A stretch of DNA of 64,000 nucleotides from an uncultured Verrucomicrobiae bacterium (GCA_963813025.1 CAWEXO010000013.1:576001-640000); one strand, 5' to 3'. Positions 42,955 to 60,758 are shown, numbered from the stretch's first letter. Made by a program: numbers and translations. Notes: a model not told the origin generated them from the sequence alone.

Positions 42955-43037
42955 GGGTAGGTACCGAAGCGGCCAAACGGGGCAGACTGTAAATCTGCTG
43001 GCTTACGCCTTCGCTGGTTCGAATCCAGCCCTGCCCA
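42955..43037 (+). tRNA. tRNA-Tyr (GTA)
   Basis: gggtagg/cctgccc acceptor stem, gcaga-ctgtaaa-tctgc anticodon arm, long variable arm, GGTTCGAATCC; CCA not encoded. Confidence 0.97.
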
Positions 43038-43331
43038 TTTCCGCTGCCAAAGCCTAAGAGCAGCCACCAGAGCGGTTTCAATGGTGGGAGCTGACGCCTG
43101 AACCGGCTGTTTCGTTCGATTTATTCAAAGTGATTCCTTCGATGAAATAGCTGGATTTTGGGCAGTTTGGGTACATTTTTGGTCAGTCGTGGTCAGTCGA
43201 TCTGGACTGACCTCCAATACTCTAAAACCATGAAAACCACTGTCACCCTCACCCATATCGAGGCGTTTAATTGCCCGCACCGTGTGGCATTCACTCGTCG
43301 GACTTAGCCTTGCATTTTTTAAGACCCGGCA

Positions 43332-43886
43332 ATGTCAAAGAAAAAAGGGCGTCCAAGTAAGGCAAAAAATCCAAAAAATGCAGCATGGATGGTAGTGCAT
43401 AAGAAAGCACTCTCCGCACTCTCGGGAGCGATGACTTTGATCGGTTTCATTGTCGCCGTGATTACCTTCTATCCGAGACCCACTGTAACACAGAGCGATC
43501 CGGTGGATCCCAGCAATCCATTCTCAGCATCTTTTACTATCACAAATAACACCTTCATCCCACTTGAACATGTCACTGCATTTCTAGGCATTGGTCAGAT
43601 TGAAAGTGAACCCGCGGCAGCGATCCCGAATTTTCACCCGAATTTTAGCACCCATCTGGTTAAGACGAACGATTGGGAGAACCATTATCTCGGTAGAGAC
43701 GAACGATTTGCTATTACGCCTTCGGATATCTTTTCGAAGGGAAGCGGCAAAATAAGCTTCGCAGACGTTGCGATCGGCATCACGTATAAACCGTGGTTTC
43801 TGCCGTGGAAAATGGAAAAGATGTTCCGCTTTGTAACGCACAAACAACCCAACGGTCTGTACTGGTACTCTTTTCCTTTGAATTAA
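43332..43886 (+). CDS. Hypothetical protein with one N-terminal TM helix (cargo)
   Basis: 184 aa ORF, lower GC, hydrophobic segment at about aa 27-47. Confidence 0.7.
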   Translation: MSKKKGRPSKAKNPKNAAWMVVHKKALSALSGAMTLIGFIVAVITFYPRPTVTQSDPVDPSNPFSASFTITNNTFIPLEHVTAFLGIGQIESEPAAAIPNFHPNFSTHLVKTNDWENHYLGRDERFAITPSDIFSKGSGKISFADVAIGITYKPWFLPWKMEKMFRFVTHKQPNGLYWYSFPLN

Positions 43887-44188
43887 AGCATCTACCGAAT
43901 GATCAAAACACCAAAGATCAAAACACCAAAAATCGGCCAACAGTGGGGCACCCGTCGCGCGCGCATTAATTCTGCTGCCGCCGGGCGACACTCTCGGCAA
44001 GCTCGGTCTCCATTTCTTTCGCCGGTCGAACAAGTCCCTTCCAAGCTTCTTCTTCTTCGGAATGAGCTAGCGGAGCTCTACGACTTTACCAACTCTTGAA
44101 AACTTTCGTCCTCGCTTATAGGAGAAACTCGAGCACAGGCATCAGAGCCGCCCTCCTCCGAGTCGAGCTTGTGCCTCAGGTCGGCGAA

Positions 44189-44422
44189 CTAGATGCCGCC
44201 GCTCGGAGGATTTAGCGAATCAATCGGTTCGGTTTCGGAGCAGGAGAAATACCGGGCTCTCAGCACACAGCTGACGAAATGCCCTGGCGTAGTTCCCAAT
44301 CGCTGACACTCGGCTCGGATCATGGAAGTTGTCGCTCGAGGCAACTGCCAACCGACGCATTCAGTATTAGCCGGCGGCCGGCCGTTTGGGCGGGAGGCTT
44401 TGACGTGGGTCGCATGACGCAC
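44189..44422 (-). CDS. RHH-like small DNA-binding protein, copy A1
   Basis: GRPPANTECVGWQLPRATTSMIRAECQRLG; differences from copy A2 in the core are synonymous. Confidence 0.7.
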   Translation of the reverse strand: MRHATHVKASRPNGRPPANTECVGWQLPRATTSMIRAECQRLGTTPGHFVSCVLRARYFSCSETEPIDSLNPPSGGI

Positions 44423-44489
44423 GCCTTCACCGTAGCAGATTTGTCCGGGTTTTTGCTAGGAGCAACTCGAGAGATTTTGTTCCTGGAAC

Positions 44490-44687
44490 ATGCCGACCGC
44501 CACAAAATCTCGCGCCGGACGGCCCCGGCTGGGTGATGAACGGATCGATGTGACTCTGCCGCGATCGGTTGCTAATCAGTTGCGCAGCTTCGAGAATCTG
44601 ACGGGCAAGTACCGCACCCGGATCGTGGCCAATATCATCACAAACGTTCTGGCCGATCCGGAAGCCACGCAACGCTTCCTCCACTAG
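44490..44687 (+). CDS. RHH-like small DNA-binding protein B1
   Basis: GRPRLGDERIDVTLPRSVANQLR...RTRIVANII. Confidence 0.75.
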   Translation: MPTATKSRAGRPRLGDERIDVTLPRSVANQLRSFENLTGKYRTRIVANIITNVLADPEATQRFLH

Positions 44688-44876
44688 AACTTGAACGCCT
44701 CCCGATTTGAGCGTTGCTTCGTTATGCCCATAATTTCACCTATCATCTTAGATCGTCCTACTCGGCCAAGCTCTCCAAAGGTGCACCGGATGACTCCTCG
44801 AGTCCCTCGTCCCTCCAGGAGAAGTTCAAGCAGGGGCACTAGCCACCGAGTCGAGTTCGTGCATCAAGTCGGCGAA

Positions 44877-45113
44877 CTAGATGCGGCCGCGCGGAGGCTT
44901 TAGCCCGAGTAGAGTCTGTTCGGTTTCGGAGCAGGAGAAATACCGGGTCATCAGCACACAGCTGACGAAATGCCCCGGCGTAGTTCCCAACCGCTGACAC
45001 TCGGCACGGATCATGGAGGTGGTCGCTCGGGGCAACTGCCAACCAACGCATTCAGTATTAGCCGGCGGCCGGCCGTTTGGGCGGGAAGCTTTGCCGTGAG
45101 TCGCATGACGCAC
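44877..45113 (-). CDS. RHH-like small DNA-binding protein, copy A2
   Basis: Near-identical protein to 44189-44422. Confidence 0.7.
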   Translation of the reverse strand: MRHATHGKASRPNGRPPANTECVGWQLPRATTSMIRAECQRLGTTPGHFVSCVLMTRYFSCSETEQTLLGLKPPRGRI

Positions 45114-45181
45114 GCATTCACCGTAGCAGATTTGTCCGGGTTTTTGCTAGGGCCGACTTTGCCCGCGAAAAGTCTGTTTCA

Positions 45182-45499
45182 ATGGCGAGAAAGATCGGCC
45201 GCCCACGAGTCGGTGATGAGCGAATGCAGTTGACCATTCCTCGCAACGTTTTCGACCGATTGCGTGAACTGGAGACCCAGACCGGCGAATACCGAACGGC
45301 GATCGCTCGCAAAATCATTGCTCAAGAGCTGATGGGCGCAGACTCCGGAATTTGCCAGCTGGCCGACTCCCAGAGGACCGCACCTCCACCAAAGTCCAAT
45401 CTCCAGCACACCAGCAAGCTTTTGCCGCCTCCGGCTGAAGTCGAGCTGGATCGGCTCTTGAACCTGGCTGGCGATCTCGGGGGGAGTCTGCCTCGCTAG
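45182..45499 (+). CDS. RHH-like small DNA-binding protein B2
   Basis: MARKIGRPRVGDERMQLTIPRNVFDRLRELE..TGEYRTAIARKII; paralogue of B1. Confidence 0.75.
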   Translation: MARKIGRPRVGDERMQLTIPRNVFDRLRELETQTGEYRTAIARKIIAQELMGADSGICQLADSQRTAPPPKSNLQHTSKLLPPPAEVELDRLLNLAGDLGGSLPR

Positions 45500-45508
45500 G
45501 AGGAAACC

Positions 45509-45661
45509 ATGGCGCAGGGTGGAAAACGACCAGGAGCAGAGCGACGCCCGATCGAGGACAGCATCACCGTAAAATGGCGGGTGCCTCGGGATGTGCATTC
45601 GGCGATAGTGGCTGAAGCTCCCCCGGCAGCAATTGCGGTGATCACCGGCTGCCACTCATAA
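45509..45661 (+). CDS. 50-aa RHH-like protein (not in ORF track)
   Basis: AGGAGG RBS; MAQGGKRPGAERRPIEDSITVKWRVPRDVHSAIVAEA. Confidence 0.55.
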   Translation: MAQGGKRPGAERRPIEDSITVKWRVPRDVHSAIVAEAPPAAIAVITGCHS

Positions 45662-45823: not shown

Positions 45824-46630
45824 TTATGGTGCTGAAGGGCTAGCAGTGCCGGAACCGGTGACTGCTGAGACAGCACTCCCTTGAGGAGGATGGTCGAGTA
45901 GATTCATCACTTGAATTTCGGAAGACTGCAGAGCGATCAACTTTTTGTCTGAATTCTGGACAACCACATAACGGTTCAATTCGAGGACGACCCGCCCTTC
46001 GAACTTTGAATGATCTTTCATCATGATCGTCCGAAAAGAGAGTATCGGACCGGCGATCGTTAGGAAATAGAGTCCTGTCCAAAAGGAAAATGCTAATATC
46101 CAAATAGTAATCTGAATGAAGGAAGAGAAGAGCGGAGGCAACCGAAACAAGTGGACCCAACCCGGGATTAAGGTTAAGGACACCAACAGGACTACAGTCG
46201 GACAGTACCACCATGCGAACAACGTCAAAAGGATGTCCTTAGGAAAAGCTTGTATGACGACGAAGACGATTCCAAGGACTGCATAAAAGAGAGGCTTGTT
46301 AAGGTTGGCCAACCAACGCGGCAAGCTGATAATTGACTCACGGAATCGCTTCCTGTCCTCGACGTTAGCCGCCAAGACGCTGGGAGGCCGCTCAATACCC
46401 AAGCGAAACAACATGCCAATAACAACCCCAACCCCCATCGATGTCGGAATTGCCCAGCTGGGTGCAACCCGGAGATAGTCGGAGAGATCACAGAGTCCTA
46501 AGAGGTTGTGATTCAACCCCAACGAGAGGCCAGAGACGAAAAGAAGCGAGGCAAGGAATACGACAGCGCTGAGGAAAGTAAATCCGACTGTGAGATTCGG
46601 CCACTTCGATGAAATGTCATTATCCGCCAT
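45824..46630 (-). CDS. Hypothetical multi-pass membrane protein (cargo)
   Basis: About 5 hydrophobic segments; start chosen at MADND. Confidence 0.7.
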   Translation of the reverse strand: MADNDISSKWPNLTVGFTFLSAVVFLASLLFVSGLSLGLNHNLLGLCDLSDYLRVAPSWAIPTSMGVGVVIGMLFRLGIERPPSVLAANVEDRKRFRESIISLPRWLANLNKPLFYAVLGIVFVVIQAFPKDILLTLFAWWYCPTVVLLVSLTLIPGWVHLFRLPPLFSSFIQITIWILAFSFWTGLYFLTIAGPILSFRTIMMKDHSKFEGRVVLELNRYVVVQNSDKKLIALQSSEIQVMNLLDHPPQGSAVSAVTGSGTASPSAP

Positions 46631-46803: not shown

Positions 46804-47439
46804 ATGATGATTGAAACCGCGGGAGACTTCTACAAGGCGATTGCTGAACGCCGGCGCGAGGAGCGAGCGGCAATCAAAGCTTTTATTGAAGGTGCAGTAT
46901 CCGGAGATACCGAATTGTTTAGTTCCGGGATCCGCTTGGTAGACAAGCATTGTGTTTGGAATCGCGCCTTCCGGGCCATAGCCCGACACTCAGCCGCAAA
47001 AGAGGTACGCGACTACTTTCAATGGTCATGGCTATCCTCGGGCGACCACATTCGCGGCGAGGTGAACAGCGATCTTATCCTAATTGCCGGATTACGGGCT
47101 CTCTTGCCTCCTTATCGGGGCTCGGCAATCCGGCTCTACCGCGGGGACAGCGCACATAACCGCCGCCACCGCACCTACGGACTATCTTGGACTGCAAATA
47201 TCGACATTGCGCGGGCCCACGCCGGAGGCATCTGGCGCACCTTCAAGGGCGGAAGCGTAGTGCTTACCACCGTAGCTTCCCCCGAATCAACCATTTGGGC
47301 TTGCAAGGCTGAAGGTGATCACTACCAAGAGGACGAATATGTTGTCGATCGTCGCTGGTTAAAAGTCGATGTGATTGAGCGGCTTTCTCAGATTTCGATT
47401 AGAGAACATGCAAAGAAGAAAAAGGATGCCGAACAGTAA
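46804..47439 (+). CDS. Putative ADP-ribosyltransferase-fold protein
   Basis: IRLYRG ... GLSWT ... QEDEYVV, an R-S-E-like arrangement. Confidence 0.55.
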   Translation: MMIETAGDFYKAIAERRREERAAIKAFIEGAVSGDTELFSSGIRLVDKHCVWNRAFRAIARHSAAKEVRDYFQWSWLSSGDHIRGEVNSDLILIAGLRALLPPYRGSAIRLYRGDSAHNRRHRTYGLSWTANIDIARAHAGGIWRTFKGGSVVLTTVASPESTIWACKAEGDHYQEDEYVVDRRWLKVDVIERLSQISIREHAKKKKDAEQ

Positions 47440-47469
47440 CCAGCCGCCTAGTGCTCTGGAATTCGCCAA

Positions 47470-49491
47470 TCACCACACAACCGGCCGGTTCTGGACTCCG
47501 TACCGGCGCTGGGGCGTGGGCGTGCTCTCTCCTTCCACGCTGATCGAACGTTCAGCCGGCTGATAGACGATATCCCGTCGCACCGGCTGTGCTCCCCATT
47601 GAGCTGTGGTCACGCCCGGCTGGGATTGGGAATGATCGCCTGCAGGAGCTTCAGTCTGGACCGGTATCTCCTCCAGGTTGAGCCGCAAGGATTCAGTCGC
47701 GACCATGATCATGGCGAGGCAATCCAGGGCTTCGTTCCGTCGGCTCCCGATCCGTTTCCAGCTTGAGACCCGCACGCCGTTCCGGTAGCGGACCTCCTTT
47801 GTCTCCGCACGAAGTTGGGCAAAGAAGTTGTCGTCAAAGCCGCGGACCGCTTCTCCGGAAGGACCGCAACAGAGATGGATGTAGCCTGGTCCCGGCTCAG
47901 TCAAAGCCAGGGCTTCGGCTACCCGGTCCTTTGCCAGGTCAGGCGAAACGTTGACCACCTGACAACGCTCCGTCGTATTCTGGCCGATCCGGTAAAGCTG
48001 GCTCCCGGAAAGCGACAGCCCGCGGGAAGCGATCAAGTGCGGATGCCGTTTCTTGCATTCGCGATAGACCGCGCTGCCATGATGGCCGCCAGCATCCATG
48101 AGTGAACGCCGGATTCGCATAAAGCTGCCATCGCCGCGTTTCCACATCTTTTGCACAACCAGCGCGTCCAGCTGCTTGGCGACCTCGGCGGTCTGGGTCG
48201 TGATCGAGCCTTGAATCTCACCGAACTCCAGGAGCCAGAGCTCGCGGCCTTTGCCGACTCCGGCAACCAGATACTGCAGATAATGATCTTGGGTATCAAC
48301 TGCACCTACCAACACCTTGACTGGATCAGGCGCCTCGGCCGGGTAGACCTCACGCCGGTCGTTCAGGTTCTCGCTTGCCACCTCAATCCGAGGCGGAACG
48401 TAGGGCTCAGCCAACCTGGTATTGAGAAACGCTCGGAACGCGCTGGAATCGCCCGCCTGGCGCAGATGCTCGGCCGCTCTGAACTCAGAGTGAACGATGC
48501 GCCAGTCAATGAAGGGACTCACCCAGCAGCCTAGGTGGAACCCGCGACGGAACGGGTGCTGGGCGTGCGCTCGCCACTCTCCGTCTCGTTCCAGCCAAGT
48601 CGCCTGATCATAGCTCCGGCCGCACTCCAGGCAGGTGCACTCGCCACTCTCAAAGATCATCTCCGGCAACCCGAGAATCTGGAAATGACCGTGAGGACAC
48701 TGACTGTAGTAGTGCTCTTCGGTTGAATCCCGGAATAGCGCGGTGATCCGGCAGCTTTGTTCCTCTACGGGCGAGCTGGAATAGATGATCTTGGCTTGGG
48801 AGCCGAACGTGCTCGTTCTGACCTTCGCCAGCTGGATGACATCGCCTTCCGCGGTTCGACCGACCGCCATCAAAGGAAGCCGGCTGACTTCCTCGAAAAA
48901 CAGGTACTTGATCGGGCGCATCGAAAGACCCGTCGCGCTCAGGCCGGCGACGATAGCAAGCTGGCAACCGTTCTCAAAACTCTTGCGGAACATCGAGTTA
49001 TCTGATCCGGGTCCGCCGATCTGTTCGGACACGAAGGGCCGAGCAATCGGCGAATCTCGGAGCATCGGATCAATCCGGTCCAGGCTCATCGAGCGGCAAG
49101 CTTGCAAGGTTGGGCAAATCAGGAGCATCGGCGCCGGATCGGTGGCCGAGAAAAACAAGATTGGATTTAGCGTGGCAAACTCGGACTTGCCGACTTGAGA
49201 CGCGGCCATGATACACACTTCGCGGACGTTAGTGTCGGCGATTGCGCGGGTGATCTCCTCGCCATAAGGAACCCGGCTGAAATGCCAGGGACCAGGCTCG
49301 GCGCTGGCTTCTACTGACAGTCTCCGGTAGCGCTCCAGCCAGGCGATCACATCCATCGGTTCAGGTGGTCGAGCGATCAGAGCAAGCTGTCCGAAGAGCT
49401 CTCGCAAAGCCCGAGGGTCATCATAGCCCAGGCCCTGAGAAACGCGTTCCTGTGGCTTCCTAGCGCGTTTGTTTTTGGCTGAACTCGCCAT
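47470..49491 (-). CDS. Phage terminase large subunit, lambda GpA family
   Basis: AEPGPW...VPY, MAASQVGKSE Walker A, PIKYLFFEEVSR, SSP, CPHG..Q, GFHL..WVSPF..W, FLNTRLAEPY, AVDTQD, MDAGGH, RNEALDC. Confidence 0.94.
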   Translation of the reverse strand: MASSAKNKRARKPQERVSQGLGYDDPRALRELFGQLALIARPPEPMDVIAWLERYRRLSVEASAEPGPWHFSRVPYGEEITRAIADTNVREVCIMAASQVGKSEFATLNPILFFSATDPAPMLLICPTLQACRSMSLDRIDPMLRDSPIARPFVSEQIGGPGSDNSMFRKSFENGCQLAIVAGLSATGLSMRPIKYLFFEEVSRLPLMAVGRTAEGDVIQLAKVRTSTFGSQAKIIYSSSPVEEQSCRITALFRDSTEEHYYSQCPHGHFQILGLPEMIFESGECTCLECGRSYDQATWLERDGEWRAHAQHPFRRGFHLGCWVSPFIDWRIVHSEFRAAEHLRQAGDSSAFRAFLNTRLAEPYVPPRIEVASENLNDRREVYPAEAPDPVKVLVGAVDTQDHYLQYLVAGVGKGRELWLLEFGEIQGSITTQTAEVAKQLDALVVQKMWKRGDGSFMRIRRSLMDAGGHHGSAVYRECKKRHPHLIASRGLSLSGSQLYRIGQNTTERCQVVNVSPDLAKDRVAEALALTEPGPGYIHLCCGPSGEAVRGFDDNFFAQLRAETKEVRYRNGVRVSSWKRIGSRRNEALDCLAMIMVATESLRLNLEEIPVQTEAPAGDHSQSQPGVTTAQWGAQPVRRDIVYQPAERSISVEGESTPTPQRRYGVQNRPVVW

Positions 49492-50014
49492 TTTTGTCCG
49501 AATCCGGATTCTGGAGCAATACGGACAAAGTTGCGAGAGCATCCAATATTTCCCCTTCCAAGACTGCCGATACCTCCAGGTGATCTTTGGCTTGGAACAG
49601 CCGTCGGCTTACCCGTGCAGGGAGGGATAAGAGTTGCCGGCGGAAGACCGTGATCGCTTGCCCGAAGCTCGCCAATACCTGCGCCTGAGGAACCAGCGCG
49701 CCGCGGCGCACCGCCACCTCCAGTTCTGTCCGAGCACGGGACGCGGCAGCGCCGTCAGCCCGTTCCCTGAGCCATTTGCGCCGAGCTTGCGCGTCATCCC
49801 GGCGTTGATAATCCACATAAGCGCTGAGCGTTGCGATCAGTGGGTACAGGTTCTGGTTAGTGTTCTGTGGGTTGATCTTGACCGGGAGCACTCCGCTCCG
49901 CCCCAGCTTGGACACCTCCGTGTCGGTGATCCGGAGAATTTGAGCAATCTCCGAAGTGGTCACCTCCAGCTCGCATAATTCTTCCAGGATCGGCGGTCGA
50001 AGTTTGCGCCCCAT
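49460..50014 (-). CDS. Phage terminase small subunit, Nu1-like
   Basis: N-terminal wHTH (VTTSEIAQIL.IT..EVSKL), coiled coil, ELEVAVRRGALVP, FRRQLLSLPAR; overlaps the TerL start. Confidence 0.85.
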   Translation of the reverse strand: MGRKLRPPILEELCELEVTTSEIAQILRITDTEVSKLGRSGVLPVKINPQNTNQNLYPLIATLSAYVDYQRRDDAQARRKWLRERADGAAASRARTELEVAVRRGALVPQAQVLASFGQAITVFRRQLLSLPARVSRRLFQAKDHLEVSAVLEGEILDALATLSVLLQNPDSDKNGEFSQKQTR

Positions 50015-50071: not shown

Positions 50072-50117
50072 GTGATCTGCTGCACCCGCTGGCTCGGAAA
50101 GTTCACGAAAGGATCCG
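50072..50117 (-). other. Putative lambda-like cos site (cosQ-cosN)
   Basis: Minus strand cGGATCCTttc...cG|GGTGCAGCAGAT|CAC, same spacing as lambda GGGTCCT...G|GGGCGGCGACCT|CGC, ~60 bp upstream of terS. Confidence 0.6.
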
Positions 50118-50151: not shown

Positions 50152-50451
50152 TCATTGGCTCGCCCGCAGCAAAACATCGGGATGACATGGTTGGTCAAGC
50201 CGGCACCAGCAAGCCAAGTCGTGACCGCGCAACAGGTGAAGGTTGTCCCGCATCCATTGTGCTCGGTGATCATCTGAATGAAGCAGCCAGTCTTCGAAGA
50301 GACGGACTGCAGTTGCGGCATCTGGCACGGACACATCCCCGACTCGGAACGGATTTCCAAAGTGTCCTCCCCATGTCACTACGACAGCACCGGGGGGGTT
50401 CCGATAGCCACGGACACGACGCAGCTGAACGCCATGCGGCTCAAGACTCAT
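50152..50451 (-). CDS. DUF4326 domain protein
   Basis: VQLRR..G..P..AV.V, FGNPF, LRGHDLACWC....CH.DVLL. Confidence 0.88.
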   Translation of the reverse strand: MSLEPHGVQLRRVRGYRNPPGAVVVTWGGHFGNPFRVGDVSVPDAATAVRLFEDWLLHSDDHRAQWMRDNLHLLRGHDLACWCRLDQPCHPDVLLRASQ

Positions 50452-50549: not shown

Positions 50550-51254
50550 TTAGGGGCTAGTCTTTTTAGCTTCTGCCTCGAACGCTTCCCGCTTCTGTAA
50601 AAGCGCGGCAATCTCCTTCTCCATGGCCGCGGGGCGCAGCTCGGAGGTAGGAGATACCCCGAGATGCCTGACCAGTTCTGGCGGACAAAACTTATTCAAA
50701 GCTTGAACACCGAACGCATACTTTGCCACATCCGCCAGGCCGGCTGCGGGATCGATCCGCTCTTTGAGCCATTCGACTACGGCAATGACGCGCTGAGCCC
50801 GGAGTGTTTCGGCCTGTTGTTGCAACAAGGTCTTTGCGCAATCAAGCCGGGTCCTAAGTTCTTCAGCGGCGGCCTGTCGTTTCTGGCTGGTCTTCTGCAA
50901 CCGCGATTGCAAAACACGGGTTCTGGCCTGAGCAACCGAAAGTTCAGCGACCAAGCTCTCCTCGTCCTCCCGCTCGTCATTGGTGAGACGCTCCTCGGCG
51001 GCCTTGGCTGAGGTAAGCTTGGCGTTCAATTCGGTTTCCTGGAGGGCGAGCTTCCGAAAAATGTCATGGGCCTTCTCCAACGTCAGCCAGACGTCGCCTG
51101 GATCGGCCGATTTTCGGAAGGGAATTGCCGGCACCTGAGGTGCATTAGCCAACAGTTCTGGAGGATAGGATGGAGGCGGAGCCTCGCGGACTGGGAGTGC
51201 CGGAGTTGATGGAACAATGGGTGGACGGACGGGGGATTCAGTCGTCGGGTTCAT
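50550..51254 (-). CDS. Hypothetical coiled-coil protein with Pro-rich N-terminus
   Basis: 234 aa ORF coupled to the upstream gene by ATGA overlap. Confidence 0.7.
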   Translation of the reverse strand: MNPTTESPVRPPIVPSTPALPVREAPPPSYPPELLANAPQVPAIPFRKSADPGDVWLTLEKAHDIFRKLALQETELNAKLTSAKAAEERLTNDEREDEESLVAELSVAQARTRVLQSRLQKTSQKRQAAAEELRTRLDCAKTLLQQQAETLRAQRVIAVVEWLKERIDPAAGLADVAKYAFGVQALNKFCPPELVRHLGVSPTSELRPAAMEKEIAALLQKREAFEAEAKKTSP

Positions 51255-51499
51255 TTGTTTCGAGCTGCTGCCTTTTTGAGAGAAGTAATAATCGGGGAAG
51301 GCTGCTTCGAGTTTTCGGCCCGGGTTGATCTCAGGTACTCGGCTTCGCTTTTGGGAAGCGTAGCTTTGCTTTTTACTGGAGGGCGGAGGCTAGCGGCGAT
51401 AAGCCGCCCGGCGTGATCGGCTGGGGAACGACCGAGCAACTGGGCGCCTTCGCGAAGCCGCTGGTAGTCGCTGCTCGATAGCTGGATGGTAAGTGTCAT
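51251..51499 (-). CDS. RHH-like small protein
   Basis: MTLTIQLSSSDYQRLREGAQLLGRSPADHAGRLI; ATGA overlaps on both sides. Confidence 0.7.
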   Translation of the reverse strand: MTLTIQLSSSDYQRLREGAQLLGRSPADHAGRLIAASLRPPVKSKATLPKSEAEYLRSTRAENSKQPSPIITSLKKAAARNK

Positions 51500-51729
51500 G
51501 AGTGGGATCTTTCTATTTTTGGGTTACAGGAAAACTTAATGGAGAGCCCCTCGAATTGGCCGGCCACTGAGGAAGGCAGCAGCCAGGCCTGGAGACTGAC
51601 GGTACCGCTTTCCCGATAAAGCACGCCAACGAAATCAGGCTGCCAAAGTTCGGTTTTGGAAGACTTCCGATTGAGCCTTATTGTGCAGGCATCCAGGCTT
51701 TCGAAGAGCCGTGGGAAACTTGTTTTCAC
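51496..51729 (-). CDS. Hypothetical protein
   Basis: Coupled by 4-nt overlaps; QPDFVG motif. Confidence 0.6.
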   Translation of the reverse strand: MKTSFPRLFESLDACTIRLNRKSSKTELWQPDFVGVLYRESGTVSLQAWLLPSSVAGQFEGLSIKFSCNPKIERSHS

Positions 51730-52891: not shown

Positions 52892-53080
52892 GTTCCACAA
52901 GAATGTTCCATAAAGAACGCGGTTAGACAAAGAAGAGAAGGAAAGAAGAGATCCTTCCCACTTAAGCTTCTCCACTTTAGTAAATAGTAATAGAAGAGAA
53001 GAATAAGAAAGAAACAAGGAACGGGGTACGTCTTCCCGAAGCTGCCGGGAAGGTACCTGCACGAAGCTGGCGGGAAGGTA

Positions 53081-53413
53081 TCACTCCCAGGGCAGTTTCC
53101 AATTCAGGGTTATTTTTGGATTTTTGCCATTTGTCCGTTCCCACGTAATGGCTCTGTATTTTTTCAACACCTGCAACGCTTTTTGTTTTTGATTCTTTGA
53201 GATTCTGTAGGGACGCAGGCTTTCTGAGGTGAGAGCGATGGGATTTTTATGTTTCCAGTCCAAGTAACACGTTTCGTAGAGCACCAAGAGGACAGTCAAG
53301 GCGGGCATGTAGCCACTCGCAATGATTGTAAGCAGGACCGATTTCGGAAGCGTCAAGCGCTCCAACTTTCGATATTTCGAGGAACTCACAATCTCCGCAT
53401 GATTTCGTCCCAC
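53081..53413 (-). CDS. Winged-helix-like protein downstream of PolA
   Basis: PIALTSESL...ISKNQKQKALQVLKKYRAITWERTNGKNPKITL. Confidence 0.65.
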   Translation of the reverse strand: MGRNHAEIVSSSKYRKLERLTLPKSVLLTIIASGYMPALTVLLVLYETCYLDWKHKNPIALTSESLRPYRISKNQKQKALQVLKKYRAITWERTNGKNPKITLNWKLPWE

Positions 53414-55098
53414 ATGGGTTTGCCCTTCTTTTTCATGTAGCGGTCTGGATACCGAACGAGGGTCGACTCCACTCGCAGTTGGTAGCCGTCCAGAACCATG
53501 GCGGAGGCTTTCCCCATGCAGGCCTGCAGTGCATCTACGACAGTTTCAATCTCGGCGGCCGGCGCTACCACAGCCATGGCATCATGCATCAAACCGCAGA
53601 CGGGGAGTTCAGCTTCCGTCGCAAAGATGGCCGCCAGCCGCAGCATGTCGCCAGCGTTGCCCTGGCTGTGATAATTGCCGGCAGCCCGGGCATTGCAGCT
53701 GGCGTCGGTGATGCGTTTACGCCAGCCGAAGGTGGTAAATTGAAAGGTATGGATAAAGGCGTGATTCTTGACGTCCTCCAGCCACTCCCAGTAGCGCGGG
53801 AAAATCTCCCGATGCAGGCGCAGCAACCGCCTGGCTACCGTTTGTGGTTGTCCCAGCTGGCCGGCGAGGGTTTGGTCGTGAATCTCGTACTGAGTGCCAA
53901 GGATGCAGGGTTTGTAACGCTCACGCAGCTCCTCGTGAGTCTCCTTGGTCACGCCGGGCGGAGCATCTCCGACCTCCATGGCAAACCACAGGTAGATATC
54001 GGGACTTTCGTAAGCCCGGATCATGTTGGGATCGCCGGAGAGCACTGCGGCAATGCCAAACTCCTGAGCCACCCAGTCCAGGACAGCGAAGGTTTCGCCC
54101 GGCGCCGGTTTAACTAAGCCGCGCAGCCACGAGGGAGCGCCGAGAATGGATTTGGCAGGCGAGGGCATGTTACGGCCCGTGATTGTCCAGAATGGGTTCA
54201 TGTACGCGCGATTGCAGCCATCCGAACCGACAGGAAAATCTAAAAGTCGCGTTTTGGAGAGAATGCCTCGCAGGTAGCGCAACTTCAGAAGCTGGGGATA
54301 AACTCGAGCCCGTTCTTCAAAAGCCTCGTCATCCAGGCGAAGTGTGCCGCTTTTAAGAACCGGCCATTCAATGCCTTCTCGCGTCAGGTACTCAACAAAT
54401 TTGTTCGTGTTAAACGAAGCGCCTTCATAAACTCCGTAGTCTCGATCGACTTCGGCAATCAACTCTTGTTTAATCCGTGACATCTCTTCCCGGAGACGAT
54501 CGCGCAGCGGTTCATCAAAAGGTACGCCGACTCGCTCAATCCAAGCCAGGCTGTACATGTAGCGTCCGCGCAGAGTGGCTCGGGGGAGGTCCAACAGAGG
54601 CAACATCTTTCTAAAAAGCTCCGCAGTTTCATCCACGTCACTTTCGCAATAATCCAGAATTTCCTGGCGTTCTTCCGAGCTCCAAGGTCCGCCACGCAAG
54701 ACCAGATCTCGCTTCGCGGCCTTTTCTTCTTTGGTGATCGCGACAATGCCGAAGTCCACTAGAGCCCGTAACAGGGAAGTTGGCGTGGGCTTCTTCGTCT
54801 GGCCGTTTATGAGCCAGCGATATTCGCTATAGAGATCCAGAATGCACTGCGGTTTGGCCCAGCCAAGCGCCAGGTGACAGGAAGCTTCGGCGCTTGTCTG
54901 GTATGATACAAAGAGGGAACCTGGCCCTATATCGTAGGGTGGACGGTCCTCAAATTCCGTGTACCAAAGTTTGATTTTCCGGTTCGAGCGCAGTTCGCGC
55001 GCGACCAAACAGATCGGCTGCACATTACCGTTGCCTTGCGGAATAAACTCAAAGTCAGCAATGGTAATGTGCCGGAACCGATCGAGCAGGAAGGACAC
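53386..55098 (-). CDS. Family A DNA polymerase with N-terminal 3'-5' exonuclease-like domain
   Basis: ADFEF (ExoI), YCESDV (ExoIII), TITGRN, LDWVAQEF (motif A), RERYK..ILGTQY (motif B), MHDA (motif C). Confidence 0.92.
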   Translation of the reverse strand: MSFLLDRFRHITIADFEFIPQGNGNVQPICLVARELRSNRKIKLWYTEFEDRPPYDIGPGSLFVSYQTSAEASCHLALGWAKPQCILDLYSEYRWLINGQTKKPTPTSLLRALVDFGIVAITKEEKAAKRDLVLRGGPWSSEERQEILDYCESDVDETAELFRKMLPLLDLPRATLRGRYMYSLAWIERVGVPFDEPLRDRLREEMSRIKQELIAEVDRDYGVYEGASFNTNKFVEYLTREGIEWPVLKSGTLRLDDEAFEERARVYPQLLKLRYLRGILSKTRLLDFPVGSDGCNRAYMNPFWTITGRNMPSPAKSILGAPSWLRGLVKPAPGETFAVLDWVAQEFGIAAVLSGDPNMIRAYESPDIYLWFAMEVGDAPPGVTKETHEELRERYKPCILGTQYEIHDQTLAGQLGQPQTVARRLLRLHREIFPRYWEWLEDVKNHAFIHTFQFTTFGWRKRITDASCNARAAGNYHSQGNAGDMLRLAAIFATEAELPVCGLMHDAMAVVAPAAEIETVVDALQACMGKASAMVLDGYQLRVESTLVRYPDRYMKKKGKPMWDEIMRRL

Positions 55099-55105: not shown

Positions 55106-55834
55106 CTACTCCACGCCAGCCAGGTTCTGCATGATCGGATGTTCCATGGAATCGATCACCCGATTCTTGAAGGCTAGCCGCAGAATTTCGCCAAAAGATA
55201 CCTCCGGCCAAATCGGTTCGGGCATCTTTCCGTTAGGCCGGACATAGGCATAACAGCCGCCTTCGGCATAGACACGCAACCATTCGGTTTTGCACATATC
55301 GGCAATCTCTCTGGCGGTTCTCCAATAATCATTGTCCCTGGCCCCATCCAGGGGGAGGCGTATTTTCCAGACGAAAGGCTTTTCCGCGTGGCGCTCCAAA
55401 GCCAGACAAAGAATGACACTTTTCATGAGCACCTTGTATTCCTCTGCCAGCTCCTGCAAAAAGGGAGGAGAAATCAGGTAGGTATCCCTTTCCATCCCTG
55501 CCTCATCGGTGTCTTCAAAGATGTAAGTCAGGTGCTGATAGTCTTCCCCGGGATGCACCCGACAAAAGGAGCCAGGCCGCGGAACTTTTCTAATGCTGTA
55601 GCTGGTGACTAACTTCTTAGCCGGGGCTTTTAGCGTTGCCTGGCTCAAACGCATGTTGACCGGGTCGAATGGGTCAAATGCGGGTTTTGGTTCGCTGCGT
55701 GAAGCTTCAACCGGTTCTGGCTGAGCCGACGGACTTACTTCGGATATGTGGTTTTGGGCGCCATCCGAGCTGAATGTATCAAAACTAACTGTCTCGCGTT
55801 TTTTCATAAAAGTTAGATTGCCGGGGGTTTTCAC
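55106..55834 (-). CDS. Hypothetical protein directly upstream of PolA (possible replication accessory)
   Basis: 242 aa ORF, aromatic-rich (IRK.P...FCRVHP, W.R, P.WPE..F.EILRLAF..RVI); function inferred from position only. Confidence 0.7.
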   Translation of the reverse strand: MKTPGNLTFMKKRETVSFDTFSSDGAQNHISEVSPSAQPEPVEASRSEPKPAFDPFDPVNMRLSQATLKAPAKKLVTSYSIRKVPRPGSFCRVHPGEDYQHLTYIFEDTDEAGMERDTYLISPPFLQELAEEYKVLMKSVILCLALERHAEKPFVWKIRLPLDGARDNDYWRTAREIADMCKTEWLRVYAEGGCYAYVRPNGKMPEPIWPEVSFGEILRLAFKNRVIDSMEHPIMQNLAGVE

Positions 55835-55837
55835 TGA

Positions 55838-56191
55838 TTAGGTTTGAAACTCTAGCTGCCGCCCATCCCGTTTAGCCTTGCGCGGCCTGCGGGGCAGCTC
55901 GTAAAGCGTAAACACTTCGGGTAGGAGACAGGAGCAGCTCACCGCGGTAGGTATCCACCACCGGTGGTTCTCGTTCGTAATTCGGGAGTCTGCTCGCGCC
56001 GCAAATAATACGACGAGCGGCTGCTGGCACTTATCGCAGCTAAGTTCCCGGTGCTTGTTCTCTCTCCAGCAGGGAAGAGAATTAAGCAGCGCAAACTGGG
56101 TGCCGCGGACTTCTAAGAATTCTGGTCTTTTAACGGTAACACGTTTCATAATTATTGGTTTTCTTCCCCCTCTGGGAACCCTCCCTCTCAA
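55838..56191 (-). CDS. Hypothetical Cys-containing protein
   Basis: CDKC...CSC; co-oriented in the operon. Confidence 0.55.
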   Translation of the reverse strand: MRGRVPRGGRKPIIMKRVTVKRPEFLEVRGTQFALLNSLPCWRENKHRELSCDKCQQPLVVLFAARADSRITNENHRWWIPTAVSCSCLLPEVFTLYELPRRPRKAKRDGRQLEFQT

Positions 56192-56556
56192 GGGCGCTCA
56201 CTATCATCTTTTCTGAGACTGTTTAAGATAGGTCCTGTCGTGCGATTAAACCGGGTACCATATGCTCGCTTGCCTGCCCATCGCCTTCTGGTGAGTTCCT
56301 CGACCTTTGATTTTAGTTCCGCCAAGTCGTCGCTGAACATGCTCCAGAGAGGAGCGGCCAATTCCGGGAGCCTTTTCGGAACGCCGATAAAGATGCACTG
56401 GAAGCGTTCTCCCGGTTCACCTGAACTTTCTTTTGTGTAGAACTCGAACAATCCATTTCGCGTTTCGACGGCGGGTTCTGGCAGTAGCGGGCGATAGCCG
56501 TCCAAAATAGTGGCGTTAGTAAATCTCATAGGCTCTCTCCGTTCTTTGCTTGTCAT
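56188..56556 (-). CDS. Hypothetical protein
   Basis: 122 aa co-oriented ORF. Confidence 0.55.
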   Translation of the reverse strand: MTSKERREPMRFTNATILDGYRPLLPEPAVETRNGLFEFYTKESSGEPGERFQCIFIGVPKRLPELAAPLWSMFSDDLAELKSKVEELTRRRWAGKRAYGTRFNRTTGPILNSLRKDDSERP

Positions 56557-56644: not shown

Positions 56645-57469
56645 TCATGCCGCCTCTCCTTCTAACAATCTTCGGATAACGACTTGCTGGTGACTTTCGC
56701 GTTCCTGTACGTGTTCCAGCGGTTCAGGCAAAAGTTTTTCCAGTCGATTGCGTAAAATCTCGACGATGATTCGTTGACTCAAGGCTTCGGTTTCTACCGC
56801 TTCGTGTTGCCCGCCGTCCTTGTAACGACGATCCTGCTTGATAATGACAGGGAGCTGGTATCGCTCGACCTGTTCCAGCATGAGCGCTAGTCGTTCCCAG
56901 CACAGTTCGCCTACTTCACGTTCCAGTACGCGCCAAGTATTCTGCTCAATCAAATTTCCGCATAGGTCGTAGTCGCCCAGATAAATTACCTGATGAGAAG
57001 GACGCAGAATCGGGGCGATATCCGTGTGAAGAAATCCTCCACATTGACCATTGGTTGGAGCAATCCGGACGCCGTAATGGCGGGCGACTGCGCGTAAGAC
57101 ACCAGCGAGCGAGCGGCTTTCAGTAAGGATTAAGGGGGCGTTACCGTTCCACGGATCAAGCCGCGCTGCTGACAACACCCCTAGTACCCATTCTCTGACC
57201 GTAGTTGAACCGGTGAAGTCTTCCAGAGATCGGGTTTCATCCACGATCCAGTCCCAAGGAATGGCGCCGGACTCACGCAAGTCCGTCAGCGCATCGCTCA
57301 TATCTTGGTCCGGCCGTCGGCCCGCACCCGCCTTCTTCTCTTTAGAAACGACTCCGCGCGTGATCAGCTCATAGTACAAGAACCGCGGCGAGGTCGGGAG
57401 CGCCTGGTCGTGCTCGTGCTCCTTTACTAGCTCAAACAACGCGTCGCGTAGCCTGCCAATTTTGCTCAC
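56645..57469 (-). CDS. wHTH + TOPRIM protein (topoisomerase VI-A/Spo11-like architecture)
   Basis: SPRFLYYELI, LRESGAIPWDWIVDETR, ILTES..LAGVL, IYLGDYD..G, VETEAL. Confidence 0.75.
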   Translation of the reverse strand: MSKIGRLRDALFELVKEHEHDQALPTSPRFLYYELITRGVVSKEKKAGAGRRPDQDMSDALTDLRESGAIPWDWIVDETRSLEDFTGSTTVREWVLGVLSAARLDPWNGNAPLILTESRSLAGVLRAVARHYGVRIAPTNGQCGGFLHTDIAPILRPSHQVIYLGDYDLCGNLIEQNTWRVLEREVGELCWERLALMLEQVERYQLPVIIKQDRRYKDGGQHEAVETEALSQRIIVEILRNRLEKLLPEPLEHVQERESHQQVVIRRLLEGEAA

Positions 57470-57502
57470 TCACTTCCTCCTTGGCCTGAGACCGTCCACC
57501 AG

Positions 57503-58099
57503 TTAAGGGGTCAAAACTCGTTCGGCAGGGTCATAGTAGCGGGTGCTCGAATCAGTGGCTCGCGAAGCGGCTCCCAGACTTGATCCGTTTTGCTTAACTG
57601 GTGGACACTGACCCCCTTTATTTCGCCATCTGCGTTTCTTTGCTGTATCGGTCACCTTCCGACGCCTGATCCGACACTTGGCGCAGTACCGTTTTCGGGG
57701 TTCGATTCGGTGTTTTCCGCAGTCTGGGCACCGCCGGGTTATCGGCTGAACAACTACGGTCTCCGGGAAAGCCTCGCGATAGAGCTGTGCCGCTTCCCGA
57801 AATGTTTTGCCTTGGGTGAATGTTGGCCAATCCCGCTCGCCCCGCTTTTCCATCGGCAGGACGCTTTCTTCGAAGTACGGACAACGTTGGCCCAGGGCGA
57901 GCAGACATCGGCTGCCGGCCTTCTGCCACCGGAAGTGGCAGGCAGTTAGGAGATCTACGCCTGTCCCGAGACAGGTGCCGTCGGAACAAAAATTCACGCA
58001 ATGCGTTTTAGCCTGGTAAAAAACGGACCGCAGCTTCTGGGCGTGGCCATTAGCGGACGGGGCTGGGCCCACCGCGTTTGCTTGGCCAAGACAGCTCAT
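57503..58099 (-). CDS. Cys-rich putative zinc-binding protein
   Basis: HCVN, RCPYFEESVLP, CPDCG....RKRYCAKC. Confidence 0.65.
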   Translation of the reverse strand: MSCLGQANAVGPAPSANGHAQKLRSVFYQAKTHCVNFCSDGTCLGTGVDLLTACHFRWQKAGSRCLLALGQRCPYFEESVLPMEKRGERDWPTFTQGKTFREAAQLYREAFPETVVVQPITRRCPDCGKHRIEPRKRYCAKCRIRRRKVTDTAKKRRWRNKGGQCPPVKQNGSSLGAASRATDSSTRYYDPAERVLTP

Positions 58100-58395
58100 A
58101 AACGCACCTCTTGGTCCCGACATGCGGGATTGCGTTTCGGAGAACGAGACCTGGGCGGGAAGACTTCCCGCTTGGTTGGTTTAAGTTGCACTGAGGCAAC
58201 GATGGGGGTATTTGACATCGCGTTTCTTTCTTCGGGTCGTGATTCTTTGCTGGGTCACGACCCCTTTTTTCTTTGTGAGGCGGAATTTGGTTCCGGCTCC
58301 GCCTCGTTTGGACCGGTGCCAGCAGGGTGCTGGCGAAATGGTCAAGTCCGCGGCTCATTTTGTTTTAAGGCAAGGGAACCTTCGAGATCTGAGGA

Positions 58396-58620
58396 TTATT
58401 CTGCGATCGATGCGCAAACGATTTCGCTTTCCAGATAGCGCCGCACCTGCTCGGCATCGTAAAAAAAGGACCGGTAGCCATCCTTTCTGTAGTCTATTAA
58501 TCGGAGTTTGCGCAGCGTATCAAGTTTCCACGGCGAACACCCTGTGTCCGCACAGAGGCGAAGCGTTTCGGCCTTCGAGCTCCACTTACGTTTTGAAGGA
58601 GTCATGGTTGGTAAATTCAA
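58396..58620 (-). CDS. Excisionase/AlpA-like small HTH protein
   Basis: LDTLRKLRLIDYRKDGYRSFFYDAEQVRRYL; divergent from the XRE gene. Confidence 0.7.
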   Translation of the reverse strand: MNLPTMTPSKRKWSSKAETLRLCADTGCSPWKLDTLRKLRLIDYRKDGYRSFFYDAEQVRRYLESEIVCASIAE

Positions 58621-58734
58621 TTTTCAGTCGAGAGATAGAACAACAGATTAGCAACGACTGCACAAGAAATATTTTGAAAGATCCTAATATTGCTATCTGA
58701 TTCCTTTTAATCCTTGTATTCGTAGGACAATGGA

Positions 58735-59595
58735 GTGACTCTTGCGCTGAAAGTCATGCCACGTAGACCTGCTCAATCACACGTCTTGCGCACGGTCCGG
58801 GAACGGGCGGGTTTAACTCAGCGCGTTCTTGCGGACCGGATTGGATGCACTCCGGGAATGCTGCAGCAGTTCGAGAATGGAAGGGCGCGACTCTCGGAGA
58901 AACTGGCGAAACGAATCTCCTTTGAACTCGGCTGTGATTGGAGCCAGCTCCTGGACAACATGGAGCCGGAAAGGCCGATAGTGCCTTCCGGCGAAGAATT
59001 TACGACCGAATTCTATCGCACGTACGTCAGAAGCGGCTTCGCGGAACAATCGCAGGCGGACGGGGATGGCCAAGCGATTGGGTTTATGGTCCAAGCAATT
59101 TTAGATGCTGCTAATCAGGAGGGGCGTTATCGAAGCGTTACGGCATCGCTTTTCAGCGTGCTCAGGGACTTCATAAAGGAGCTAAGACTAGGACAAAGCA
59201 TATACGAGCTGCTGAAAAACTACGGCATGGGCGTACAAGGCCAGAACCCTAAAACCGATTTTCTAACTCGGTCCTGGTCTGCTGAAGACCACGTTCGCCA
59301 GGCTCTTGAGACGCTGACCTGGATCGGGCGTGACCCACAAATACGAGCTAATCGAGACCAGGTCAGGCCGCACCTGTACAAAATTCTTGAGTTTCGAGCC
59401 GCTACGCAGCCTTCGGCGGAAAAATCGACCAATACGCCTTCGCGGCCTTGGGAGTCACCCGATGACGATAAAAACGCTGAAACAAGCGCAATCCGCCCGA
59501 GTGCCCCATCGACTGAGCCGTTGCCGCGTCGTTCTGGCCGTAAACGGAGTGATAAGAGCCGTACGAGTGCCGGAGCGCATCCTGCGGCCACCTGA
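58735..59595 (+). CDS. XRE-family HTH transcriptional regulator (repressor-like)
   Basis: LRTVRERAGLTQRVLADRIGCTPGMLQQFENG. Confidence 0.85.
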   Translation: MTLALKVMPRRPAQSHVLRTVRERAGLTQRVLADRIGCTPGMLQQFENGRARLSEKLAKRISFELGCDWSQLLDNMEPERPIVPSGEEFTTEFYRTYVRSGFAEQSQADGDGQAIGFMVQAILDAANQEGRYRSVTASLFSVLRDFIKELRLGQSIYELLKNYGMGVQGQNPKTDFLTRSWSAEDHVRQALETLTWIGRDPQIRANRDQVRPHLYKILEFRAATQPSAEKSTNTPSRPWESPDDDKNAETSAIRPSAPSTEPLPRRSGRKRSDKSRTSAGAHPAAT

Positions 59596-60643
59596 GGAGA
59601 TTGGAGGCGTCAATTCCGCGCGCACCGAGTTGTTCAGCCGCGCGCTCCCGAGCAATCGCTAAATGCGCAAGGTAAGCGTCGTCCTTTAAACCGACGAACT
59701 CCTGACCTTGATGTTCAGGCGCATAACGTTTGAGCCAAGCCAACAGGTTGTCTTCGATATGGATAAAGCGGTGAGAGCCGACATTTTTGCTTTTGTCGAT
59801 TGTAATCTGACGTGTTTTGAGATCGATCGCAGACCATCGCATAGGAATTATCTCACTTTCTGGTCGACATCCGGCAAAAGCTCCCAAACAGATGGCCGGG
59901 ACAATCTGCGGACTGGCTGCAGACAGAAGCGCTTTTAATTCCGCTGGGGTGAGGATGCCGGGGCGTTTGGGCGGTATGGTGGCTGTTTCAACATCCGGTA
60001 TCGGATTTTTGACGATATATCCACGTTTTCGGGCGTGACTGAAAAAGACGCCCAGACACTGACGGTACCCCTTGCGGGTGGTTGGAGCCAACTCGAGTGA
60101 GCGCAACCAATCGTCAATCTCTGCAGATGAAATTTCATGCATCGGGCGTGGACTAAAAGCATTGACAAAACGAGTCACCTTGAGTCGGAAATCCTTCAGA
60201 TAACGAGTGGCGGCACCATCCTGCTTCTTGTATTCCAGTGCCTCGGCCAAGATCGCCTCGAGCGGCTTTGAATTGGTACGCAGCGGTAATCCGTTGCGGA
60301 GATAGAAATCAATACACTGGCTCAAAGTCACATCGTGAGATTGCAACCGTGCGAAGGCGCGGCGAGCCTCTTCTTCCTGGCTGGGTGTCAGCTCAATCAG
60401 CGACTGCTGCCCATGATTCATCTGACGTTTGCGCACCTGTTCGGCTTCATGCCGGGCTCGGGCTTCGCTGGGATAAGAGTTGCGCACTCGCCTTAGCTTG
60501 CCGGTCAGAGGATCCGGTATCCGGCCGAGATCGACGCACCATGAAGCGGTGCCGCTTTTGTTCTTAATCGGATAAACGACTGGCCACTCCCGATTGATCG
60601 GGGAGCGCCCTTTCTGTGGCGATTTGTTCTTCTGACGGCCCAT
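59402..60643 (-). CDS. Tyrosine integrase of the tRNA-Tyr element
   Basis: FAGCRPESE, SKN, DALRHSYGSY, MGHSG, RFY; start chosen at ATG 60643 inside attR. Confidence 0.93.
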   Translation of the reverse strand: MGRQKNKSPQKGRSPINREWPVVYPIKNKSGTASWCVDLGRIPDPLTGKLRRVRNSYPSEARARHEAEQVRKRQMNHGQQSLIELTPSQEEEARRAFARLQSHDVTLSQCIDFYLRNGLPLRTNSKPLEAILAEALEYKKQDGAATRYLKDFRLKVTRFVNAFSPRPMHEISSAEIDDWLRSLELAPTTRKGYRQCLGVFFSHARKRGYIVKNPIPDVETATIPPKRPGILTPAELKALLSAASPQIVPAICLGAFAGCRPESEIIPMRWSAIDLKTRQITIDKSKNVGSHRFIHIEDNLLAWLKRYAPEHQGQEFVGLKDDAYLAHLAIARERAAEQLGARGIDASNLLRWPQDALRHSYGSYHSVYGQNDAATAQSMGHSGGLRLFQRFYRHRVTPKAAKAYWSIFPPKAA

Positions 60644-60703
60644 AAGGCCGCAATTTTGGGCAGGTATTGGGCAGTCGCAAGTGGTTTCTCGAGGGAAACG
60701 GGA

Positions 60704-60758
60704 CAGACTGTAAATCTGCTGGCTTACGCCTTCGCTGGTTCGAATCCAGCCCTGCCCA
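60704..60758 (+). repeat. attR: duplicated 3' 55 bp of tRNA-Tyr
   Basis: Identical to 42983-43037; similarity extends to 60696 with one mismatch. Confidence 0.97.

Follow-up and report, generated by a model that had tools for sequence, protein, structure and literature searches.

What does a mobile element do with a complete phage terminase when no portal and no capsid accompany it? The question is raised by an element at positions 42983-60758 of a 64,000-nucleotide stretch of DNA, hereafter the window, from an uncultured Verrucomicrobiae bacterium (GCA_963813025.1 CAWEXO010000013.1:576001-640000; genome G000, 80% complete), integrated in a tRNA-Tyr gene. It is a real and maintained element, apparently an undescribed variant of phage satellite, and its sequence relationships suggest that it probably packages its own concatemers into the proheads of a related phage family, here called the sister phages. 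This reading is supported by a family of seven such islands, by a clade of their large terminase subunits (TerL), by selection, and by a small gene and a TerL tail shared with the sister phages.

A terminase island in a tRNA-Tyr gene

The element lies between two exact 55-bp att repeats (42983-43037 and 60704-60758, spaced 17,721 bp apart; 62 of 63 positions are identical when the repeat is extended), and the same tRNA-Tyr site is free of it in the same-genus genome G001, where the tRNA is preceded by the same genes; we take the order to be Chthoniobacterales. The att repeats, integrase, XRE regulator, PolA, cos-like site, small terminase subunit (TerS) and GpA-type TerL described in a first-pass annotation, made from the sequence alone, were all recovered, within the following set of features (ORF, open reading frame; aa, amino acids).

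42955..43037, + strand: tRNA-Tyr(GTA), into which the element is integrated; attL is formed by the 3' part (exact core 42983-43037)
43332..43886, + strand: cargo protein of 184 aa with one hydrophobic segment, without family
44490..44687, + strand: small conserved gene (65 aa) on the strand opposite TerL, presumably 'RHH', without family match
45077..45499, + strand: diverged duplicate of the preceding gene, produced by a tandem duplication of ~690 bp (309 nt at 90.6%)
45824..46630, - strand: cargo membrane protein of ~268 aa with four hydrophobic segments, without family
46804..47439, + strand: cargo protein of 211 aa (phrog_30882, unknown function, E 9e-17), whose YRG...SWT...EDE spacing we take to resemble that of R-S-E ADP-ribosyltransferases
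47470..49491, - strand: TerL of the lambda GpA type (PF05876 E 9e-48, PF20454 E 6e-56; the longest ORF starts at 49542)
49460..50014, - strand: TerS (phrog_57 E 3e-25)
50075..50116, - strand: putative cos-like site upstream of TerS: GGATCCT (which we take to be cosQ), 20 nt, GCG, GGTGCAGCAGAT
50152..50451, - strand: DUF4326 protein (PF14216 E 1e-19)
50550..51254, - strand: coiled-coil hairpin protein of 234 aa, conserved directly upstream of cos in four islands
51251..52211, - strand: three coupled small ORFs (161, 77 and 82 aa), kept in the C8 and G001 islands
52960..53080, - strand: candidate origin, with two 19-bp direct repeats (53080-53062 and 53055-53037) followed by a stretch rich in A and T (50 nt at 52968 with 26% GC)
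53081..53413, - strand: basic protein of 110 aa adjoining the repeats, candidate initiator
53386..55098, - strand: family-A DNA polymerase, PolA (570 aa; PF00476 E 3e-19), with 3'-5' exonuclease motifs
55106..55807, - strand: PolA partner of 233 aa with a predicted OB-like fold, candidate single-stranded DNA-binding protein (SSB)
55838..56556, - strand: pair of small ORFs, of 103 and 122 aa, which the C8 island has too
56645..57469, - strand: accessory TOPRIM-type protein of 274 aa (phrog_6247, 'DNA topoisomerase', E 9e-23)
57503..58123, - strand: accessory Cys-rich protein of 206 aa with weak zinc-ribbon matches only
58396..58605, - strand: ORF of 69 aa divergent from the XRE gene, candidate excisionase or regulator
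58735..59595, + strand: XRE-family repressor (PF01381 E 8e-10), overlapping the integrase end by 194 nt at its 3' side
59402..60643, - strand: tyrosine integrase of 413 aa (phrog_1 E 3e-35)
60704..60758, + strand: attR, a 55-bp exact copy of the tRNA-Tyr 3' part

The TerL keeps the Walker A lysine, the catalytic glutamate and the acidic residues of the nuclease, and ends in the C-terminal tail RYGVQNRPVVW. Both subunits are under purifying selection, with ratios of nonsynonymous to synonymous substitution (dN/dS, Nei-Gojobori) of 0.12 for TerL and 0.19 for TerS between the window and G001; the small gene of the opposite strand has 0.13 against its copy in another island of the same genome (C8), and the 110-aa and 82-aa genes have 0.87 and 0.83, on few changes. 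The cos-like site, read from 50116 to 50075, has the spacing of the lambda junction (record J02459: GGGTCCT, 20 nt, ACG, GGGCGGCGACCT), a spacing matched in 6/8 TerS-bearing loci. Derived after the fact from these same sites, the pattern has four matches in the genome, against ~0.4 expected, and three of them precede a TerS gene. A near-exact copy of the cos-like site of another locus of the genome (C5b) lies at L121:12144 (contig C6 of G000), with no terminase beside it.

Nothing recognisable as a head gene follows the TerL, as the first-pass annotation had stated. Portal, capsid, protease, tail and lysis genes gave no match among 31 ORFs searched against PHROGs, 35 against Pfam and 23 against NCBIfam. 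None emerged either when all six frames of the element were scanned with profiles for portal, protease, capsid, gpW, gpD and sheath, built from lambda and the nearest phages; these profiles did recover the gpE and gpD of a sibling island. A capsid or portal hidden among the hypothetical ORFs was rejected on these scans and on predicted folds of the two largest unannotated ORFs, an OB-like fold and a coiled-coil hairpin, neither of them a capsid fold; the 234-aa hairpin has generic helical matches only (P4 Psu at E 0.93, not significant). The 4.4 kb from TerL to attL are occupied by cargo and the small gene. The far end does hold cargo, as had been proposed, but not cargo only, since the duplicated small gene is among the conserved components of the packaging module. 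The portal and head genes that stand right after TerL in lambda-like prophages are missing here, whereas a portal lies within 3 kb of TerL in 60 of 80 viral GpA loci used as a control; 11 others end too soon, and eight of the nine without a portal within that distance have less than 3.6 kb left. PADLOC matched none of the seven element ORFs tested.

Replication appears to rely on a different module from that of most relatives. No primase or helicase was matched among the element proteins (Pfam, PHROGs, NCBIfam), and a PolA module stands instead, whose polymerase is 98% identical to that of the C8 island (dN/dS 0.075, Nei-Gojobori, window against C8). The TOPRIM-type protein was considered as a primase and rejected, since its gene has no second copy in the genome and is hence absent from the C8 island, which has the same PolA module. 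The predicted fold of the PolA partner weakly resembles T4/RB69 gp32 (Z 3.6-3.8, rmsd 4.7, 136 aligned), which is no more than a lead for this candidate SSB; an ESM Atlas search with it returned nothing useful, and its viral fold matches were all at E >0.001. The integrase likely starts at 60643, because the longest ORF (463 aa) extends through attR. As to the regulators, the divergent XRE/Xis pair of the first-pass annotation holds for the XRE gene, while 'Xis' has no family match and owes its name to position and size, and the same applies to the 'wHTH' label given to the ORF at 53081-53413. A promoter and terminator scan of the element stayed at chance level, and an Rfam scan gave nothing besides the tRNA.

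A family of portal-less islands

Is the element a one-off? Counting the window's, seven att-bounded islands of 10.0-18.5 kb were found, in six tRNA types of three genomes (G000, G001 and G041). Besides the window's, G000 holds four TerL loci (C8, C5a, C1 and C5b), of which the first three are among the seven; the loci are as follows:

C8 (G000): tRNA-Arg, 16.3 kb; PolA 98% and TerL 55% identical to the window's, integrase without BLAST match to the window's; cargo at L001:9370-10917 with a PD-(D/E)xK/NucC-like nuclease domain, defence-like
C5a (G000; L003, G000:C5:89810-99835): tRNA-Leu, 10.0 kb; primase/helicase, gpE, gpD, TerS and TerL
C1 (G000): tRNA-Met, 18.5 kb; Sak4 and primase/helicase, frameshifted TerL, gpD remnant
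C5b (G000): TerS, TerL and small gene; no att pair found
G001, island 1: tRNA-Arg, 17.0 kb; intact TerL, 88-89% identical, and a helicase/primase module
G001, island 2: tRNA-Ser, 17.3 kb; frameshifted TerL and a helicase/primase module
G041: tRNA-Ser, 13.9 kb; Sak4 type; cargo at L032:14265-15158 matching PDC-S05, defence-like

The six-frame profile scan detected no portal in any of the seven att-bounded islands, and in the 80% of G000 that is available none was found with PF05136 (positive controls included) or with a sister-phage profile. In a tree of 32 TerL sequences, from which the C1 fragment was excluded, the island TerLs form one long-branched clade (SH-aLRT 99.8), which also takes in about 12 metagenome proteins; the grouping was the same in other TerL trees. 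The concern that the element might be a single deleted prophage is answered by its closest relatives, which are other portal-less islands (TerL 42-89% identical), the closest full phages being at ~35%. In IMG/VR, an alignment of the island clade found none above 37% identity among the matches listed, and neither single-protein scans (TerL, PolA and the clade member P0138) nor an alignment of the PolA partner found a relative.

Does the family merely share a common decay? In this account the islands are remnants of temperate members of the sister family that lost the head-tail operon and are drifting towards loss. It would accommodate the frameshifted TerL of two of the seven members, the gpD remnant of C1, the TerL pseudogenes met on contigs from soil and remnants devoid of terminase, and a 64-kb sister provirus has an integrase, Sak4 and a primase like those of some islands. 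Independent decay, however, would scatter the island TerLs among phage TerLs and vary the breakpoints; instead they form one clade, remote from any listed IMG/VR phage, the islands stop in common after the small reversed gene, and a dN/dS of 0.12-0.19 is kept between two portal-less members. We regard decay as unlikely. The intact frames of the window's element, which had been held against decay, are a weak argument when taken alone, given the two frameshifted relatives, whose frameshifts could equally be assembly errors.

The islands exchange their parts. The PolA of the window and C8 is 98% identical despite unrelated integrases and TerLs only 55% identical, which speaks for mobility, and PolA occurs in only two of the seven islands, the others having primase/helicase or Sak4 modules; as a class marker, or as the defining trait it had been taken for, PolA was given up, and it is one of several replication modules.

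C5a departs from this pattern, with gpE (PF03864 E 3e-30) and gpD placed before cos, TerS and TerL, and neither portal nor protease; it is possibly a capsid-remodelling variant. Could it supply gpE and gpD, and thereby small heads, to all the islands? Its two head genes beside a cos-TerS-TerL set speak for such a shared particle, but a phage would still be required, no portal having been found in the 80%-complete G000, and the examined islands of G001 and G041 have no capsid gene; we hold this to be very improbable.

Several loci of related kind were also noted. One identical frameshifted and 5'-truncated island-clade TerL lies among host genes on six metagenome contigs (L145-L150), the small marker gene occurs as an orphan at L006:9822-10190 (G000:C8, ~330 kb), and a tRNA-Thr remnant of G001 (L326:7059-15846, contig C5) holds an integrase, a broken coiled-coil gene and the marker gene, with no terminase. 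The PolA and partner module is also found in a tRNA-Leu and a tRNA-Ala island (L033:15245-19794 in G024, L035:13407-15445 in G041), with no TerL seen. Portal-less TerLs of other lineages occur in other Verrucomicrobia families (L134 in G232, L133 in G229, L132 in G190, L138 in G140), three of the four adjoining a tRNA and two with an integrase, which suggests that the portal-less architecture arose repeatedly.

Sister phages, a candidate helper and how packaging might work

Where, then, would the heads come from? The sister group of the island TerL clade is a group of metagenomic TerLs (SH-aLRT 100; 98.8 at the joint node). A search of IMG/VR with an alignment of this group retrieved 63 of its loci, at 57-100% identity to the group's first member, out of 79 matches. 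They belong to an unnamed IMG/VR phage family (loci L154-L216), mostly of 55-58 kb and mostly without integrase: nine of ten large contigs lack a tyrosine integrase and none of five has a serine recombinase, and of seven near-complete genomes six measure 55.3-57.8 kb and lack the tyrosine integrase, the seventh being a provirus of 64.3 kb. In their late operon, TerS and TerL are followed by optional cargo and by a small gene lying in reverse, after which come gpW, portal, protease, gpD, gpE and the tail genes; gpW and the tail genes are named on our assumption from their position. The 'lambda-like' helper guessed by the first-pass annotation can thus be narrowed to one candidate phage family, with packaging into its heads still a matter of inference.

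Two traits tie the islands to this family. The small gene, a homologue of that at 44490-44687, lies between TerL and portal, always reversed, in 42 of the 43 sister loci that hold both, as against 0 of 176 other GpA loci (BLASTP first saw it in 46 of the 63 sister loci; the small-gene profile was built from these hits), and the islands retain TerL, cargo and the reversed small gene before reaching att. The second trait is the C-terminal tail of TerL: the motif [FWY]G[AV]xN closes the protein in 51 of the 54 complete TerLs of the sister group and in none of 167 controls, and is also terminal in the TerLs of the window, C8, C5a, C5b and G001. In lambda, the C-terminus of TerL is described as the prohead-binding domain (PMC4856287). 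Complex prediction for the TerL tail and a pair of sister-phage portal chains scored 0.00 and is given no weight here. Of 38 sister regions upstream of TerS, 12 carry AGGTTCT, 11 AAGTTTT and four GGGTCCT, and the site of phage L192 is closely like the cos-like site of the window. One IMG/VR contig (L190:1752-7856) joins a PolA partner and PolA (43%) to sister-clade TerS and TerL, and ends 300 nt past TerL.

From this anatomy we infer the following cycle of induction, excision, replication, cos cutting, docking and multimer loading. The XRE repressor would keep the element silent in tRNA-Tyr until infection by a sister-family helper, probably virulent, triggers excision. Replication would start from the repeat and AT-rich origin, with the element's own PolA, probable SSB and initiator together with the primase and helicase of the host, and would yield concatemers; the element's TerS would bind its own cos-like site, where its TerL would cut. 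The TerL tail, common with the sister phages, may then dock on the helper portal, about three copies (53 kb, or 93% of a 57-kb helper genome) would be loaded into a full-size head, and the tail and lysis genes of the helper would complete the particle. Lambda is reported to package cosmid multimers in a like manner (PMC4856287). As to origin, a single ancient cut of a phage late operon, between the small reversed gene and gpW/portal, may have founded the family, integrases and replication modules having presumably been exchanged since.

Several observations weigh against this reading, in addition to the frameshifted TerLs and the decayed remnants. The fit to 57 kb discriminates little, as any unit below ~20 kb fits some multiple, and speaks of compatibility only. 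The tail motif is missing in G041 and in five of seven full-length metagenome members (P0003-P0009), and both the motif and the small-gene profile were defined after inspecting these sequences. The family is narrow: of 43 family genomes, five have a TerL that matches at E 1e-20 and three the small gene; among the metagenome members of the clade, one (P0138) sits on a 58-kb contig, and P0003-P0010 are known as proteins without genomic context. The host link of the sister phages is thin, consisting of shared small genes and a 34-nt match between the att of the 64.3-kb provirus and a tRNA-Ser of G000; among the former, a 52-aa membrane-protein gene found inside the tail operon of four sister-phage loci (L196:18758-18916 and three others) has 71-81% DNA identity to a gene of the G000 host, with a second stretch at 79-84%. 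The Walker B aspartate, finally, is replaced by glutamate in the window TerL and in eight further clade sequences, and by threonine in two, although it is aspartate in 78 of 78 viral GpA TerLs.

The last point leads to another account, in which the terminase occupies helper portals, or cuts without translocating, as an anti-phage defence, spread being passive or rare. The altered Walker B of 11 clade sequences, which keep the nuclease residues and, as far as most of the genomic members go, the tail as well, leaves room for it, as does the defence-like cargo of the siblings (the nuclease of C8, PDC-S05 of G041). The Walker A lysine and catalytic glutamate are nevertheless kept in the full-length members, and the glutamate does not demonstrate a dead motor because Sf6 TerL, functional, natively has Glu-Glu at this place (PMC6379665, Table 1). 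A pure blocker, moreover, would not need the cos, TerS and replication genes that the element has retained, and interference of this kind seems to us quite improbable.

No sister-family prophage was found in the 401 genomes of the order and 401 of the phylum that were sampled; a sister-phage portal profile found none in the 43 family genomes, a result that speaks to close homologues only, the same query having missed known portals in four controls. Might the terminase serve a non-viral purpose, such as cutting concatemers to unit-length linear DNA for spread in vesicles or by natural transformation? [quoted passage not shown] The TerL, for its part, retains a phage-type C-terminal tail and its ATPase domain, and the integrase could already resolve circles, which makes such a role hardly to be expected. 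Packaging into sister-family proheads remains the account we favour.

Around the element, the window holds further features. An AbiJ-NTD4/Abi_C gene (PADLOC PDC-S32) at 61170-62135, just beyond attR, opens ~30 kb of further DNA that is missing from G001 at the same site, and another island lies at 16197-26476 in tRNA-Arg(TCT), with a 41-bp att pair ~10.2 kb apart; it contains an integrase, a Fic gene and fragments of transposases, and no terminase. Tandem-repeat arrays (10-, 16- and 7/21-nt units) occupy 30760-36233, 37535-37726 and 40449-40970; some are inverted pairs a few hundred bases apart, and similar stretches are also present in G001.

Comparison with known satellites

How does the element compare with satellites already described? 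A literature search that covered mostly papers outside subscription met none that has both TerS and TerL and is devoid of portal and capsid alike; the gene tables of VEIMEs and tycheposons could hold such elements. With classical phage-inducible chromosomal islands (PICIs, such as SaPI and EcCICFT073; PMC10085698), the element shares a size of 10-18 kb, a site-specific integrase, divergent regulators, a replication module, TerS, accessory genes placed after the packaging genes, and the absence of tail and lysis genes. Set against the PICI model of SatelliteFinder, it has an integrase at one end of an att-bounded segment, a transcriptional regulator (XRE, PF01381; the partner ORF has no family match) and a small terminase (phrog_57). 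It has no primase-replicase, listed as a PICI core gene (PMC10085698), although sibling islands do have primase/helicase; for the optional capsid-morphogenesis gene (type B) there was no family match, the 234-aa coiled coil giving generic matches only. Unlike PICIs, which rely on a helper TerL, it has its own cos and an intact GpA-type TerL under purifying selection.

SatelliteFinder lists TerL as specific to capsid-forming PICIs (cf-PICIs; PMC10085698), which are described as encoding capsid, protease, portal and connectors (10.1101/2022.09.08.507074). Like a cf-PICI (EcCIEDL933), the element has its own TerS and TerL, a TerL clade on long branches from phages, and no tails; unlike it, it lacks the major capsid, protease, portal and head-tail connectors, by the same profiles that found gpE and gpD in C5a and portals in phage loci, and its GpA-type terminase is without HNH. 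C5a, with gpE, gpD, TerS and TerL but no portal, looks intermediate towards cf-PICIs. Current satellite models take TerL as a sign that an element also makes heads of its own, and tools score a TerL without portal as prophage decay; if our reading is true, a portal-less lineage maintained with its cos, TerS and TerL would represent a third packaging strategy, and some 'cryptic prophages' would be working parasites.

Other satellites do without capsid genes as well. VEIMEs have none, some carry TerS and DNA polymerase genes and some occur in Verrucomicrobia, their TerL being presumed to come from the helper (PMC9618062), and the helpers of PICMIs are virulent phages (PMC11389934). The likeness to both extends to concatemers in full-size heads, shown for VEIMEs and proposed here; the difference is that the whole terminase is encoded by the element, where the VEIME borrows its TerL and the PICMI seems to use a DNA motif only (PMC11389934). 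PICI-like tycheposons (10.1101/2020.12.28.424599) are likewise integrated in tRNA genes, measure 10-20 kb and have swappable replication modules that include polymerases, although they are described as having TerS or, instead, a major capsid protein and live in another host phylum, and EPIPs are reported to combine TerS with head-tail genes and the gene of a tape measure protein (PMC12822802).

A further comparison is with the sister phages themselves, which share the TerL ancestry, TerS, cos layout, small reversed gene and TerL tail motif, and which, unlike the element, go on to gpW, portal, protease, gpD, gpE and tail in complete genomes of 55-64 kb. The islands bear on the origin of satellites through the loss of phage genes, and since a helper family, an evolutionary breakpoint and a candidate docking peptide can be named, the idea is testable in vitro without culture of the host. 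A tentative generalization, to which we would lend somewhat less than equal credence, is a class of satellites that steal proheads and not terminases: their own cos-TerS-TerL motor would replace the helper's, the short TerL tail would keep compatibility with virulent phages of 55-58 kb by docking on their portal, one cut of a late operon would lie at their origin, their members would range from terminase only to terminase plus capsid (C5a), bridging PICIs and cf-PICIs, and the change in Walker B may adjust the motor so that it outcompetes or jams that of the helper. Taken together, the element is neither a PICI nor a cf-PICI by membership, yet it would work like a satellite of the PICI type.

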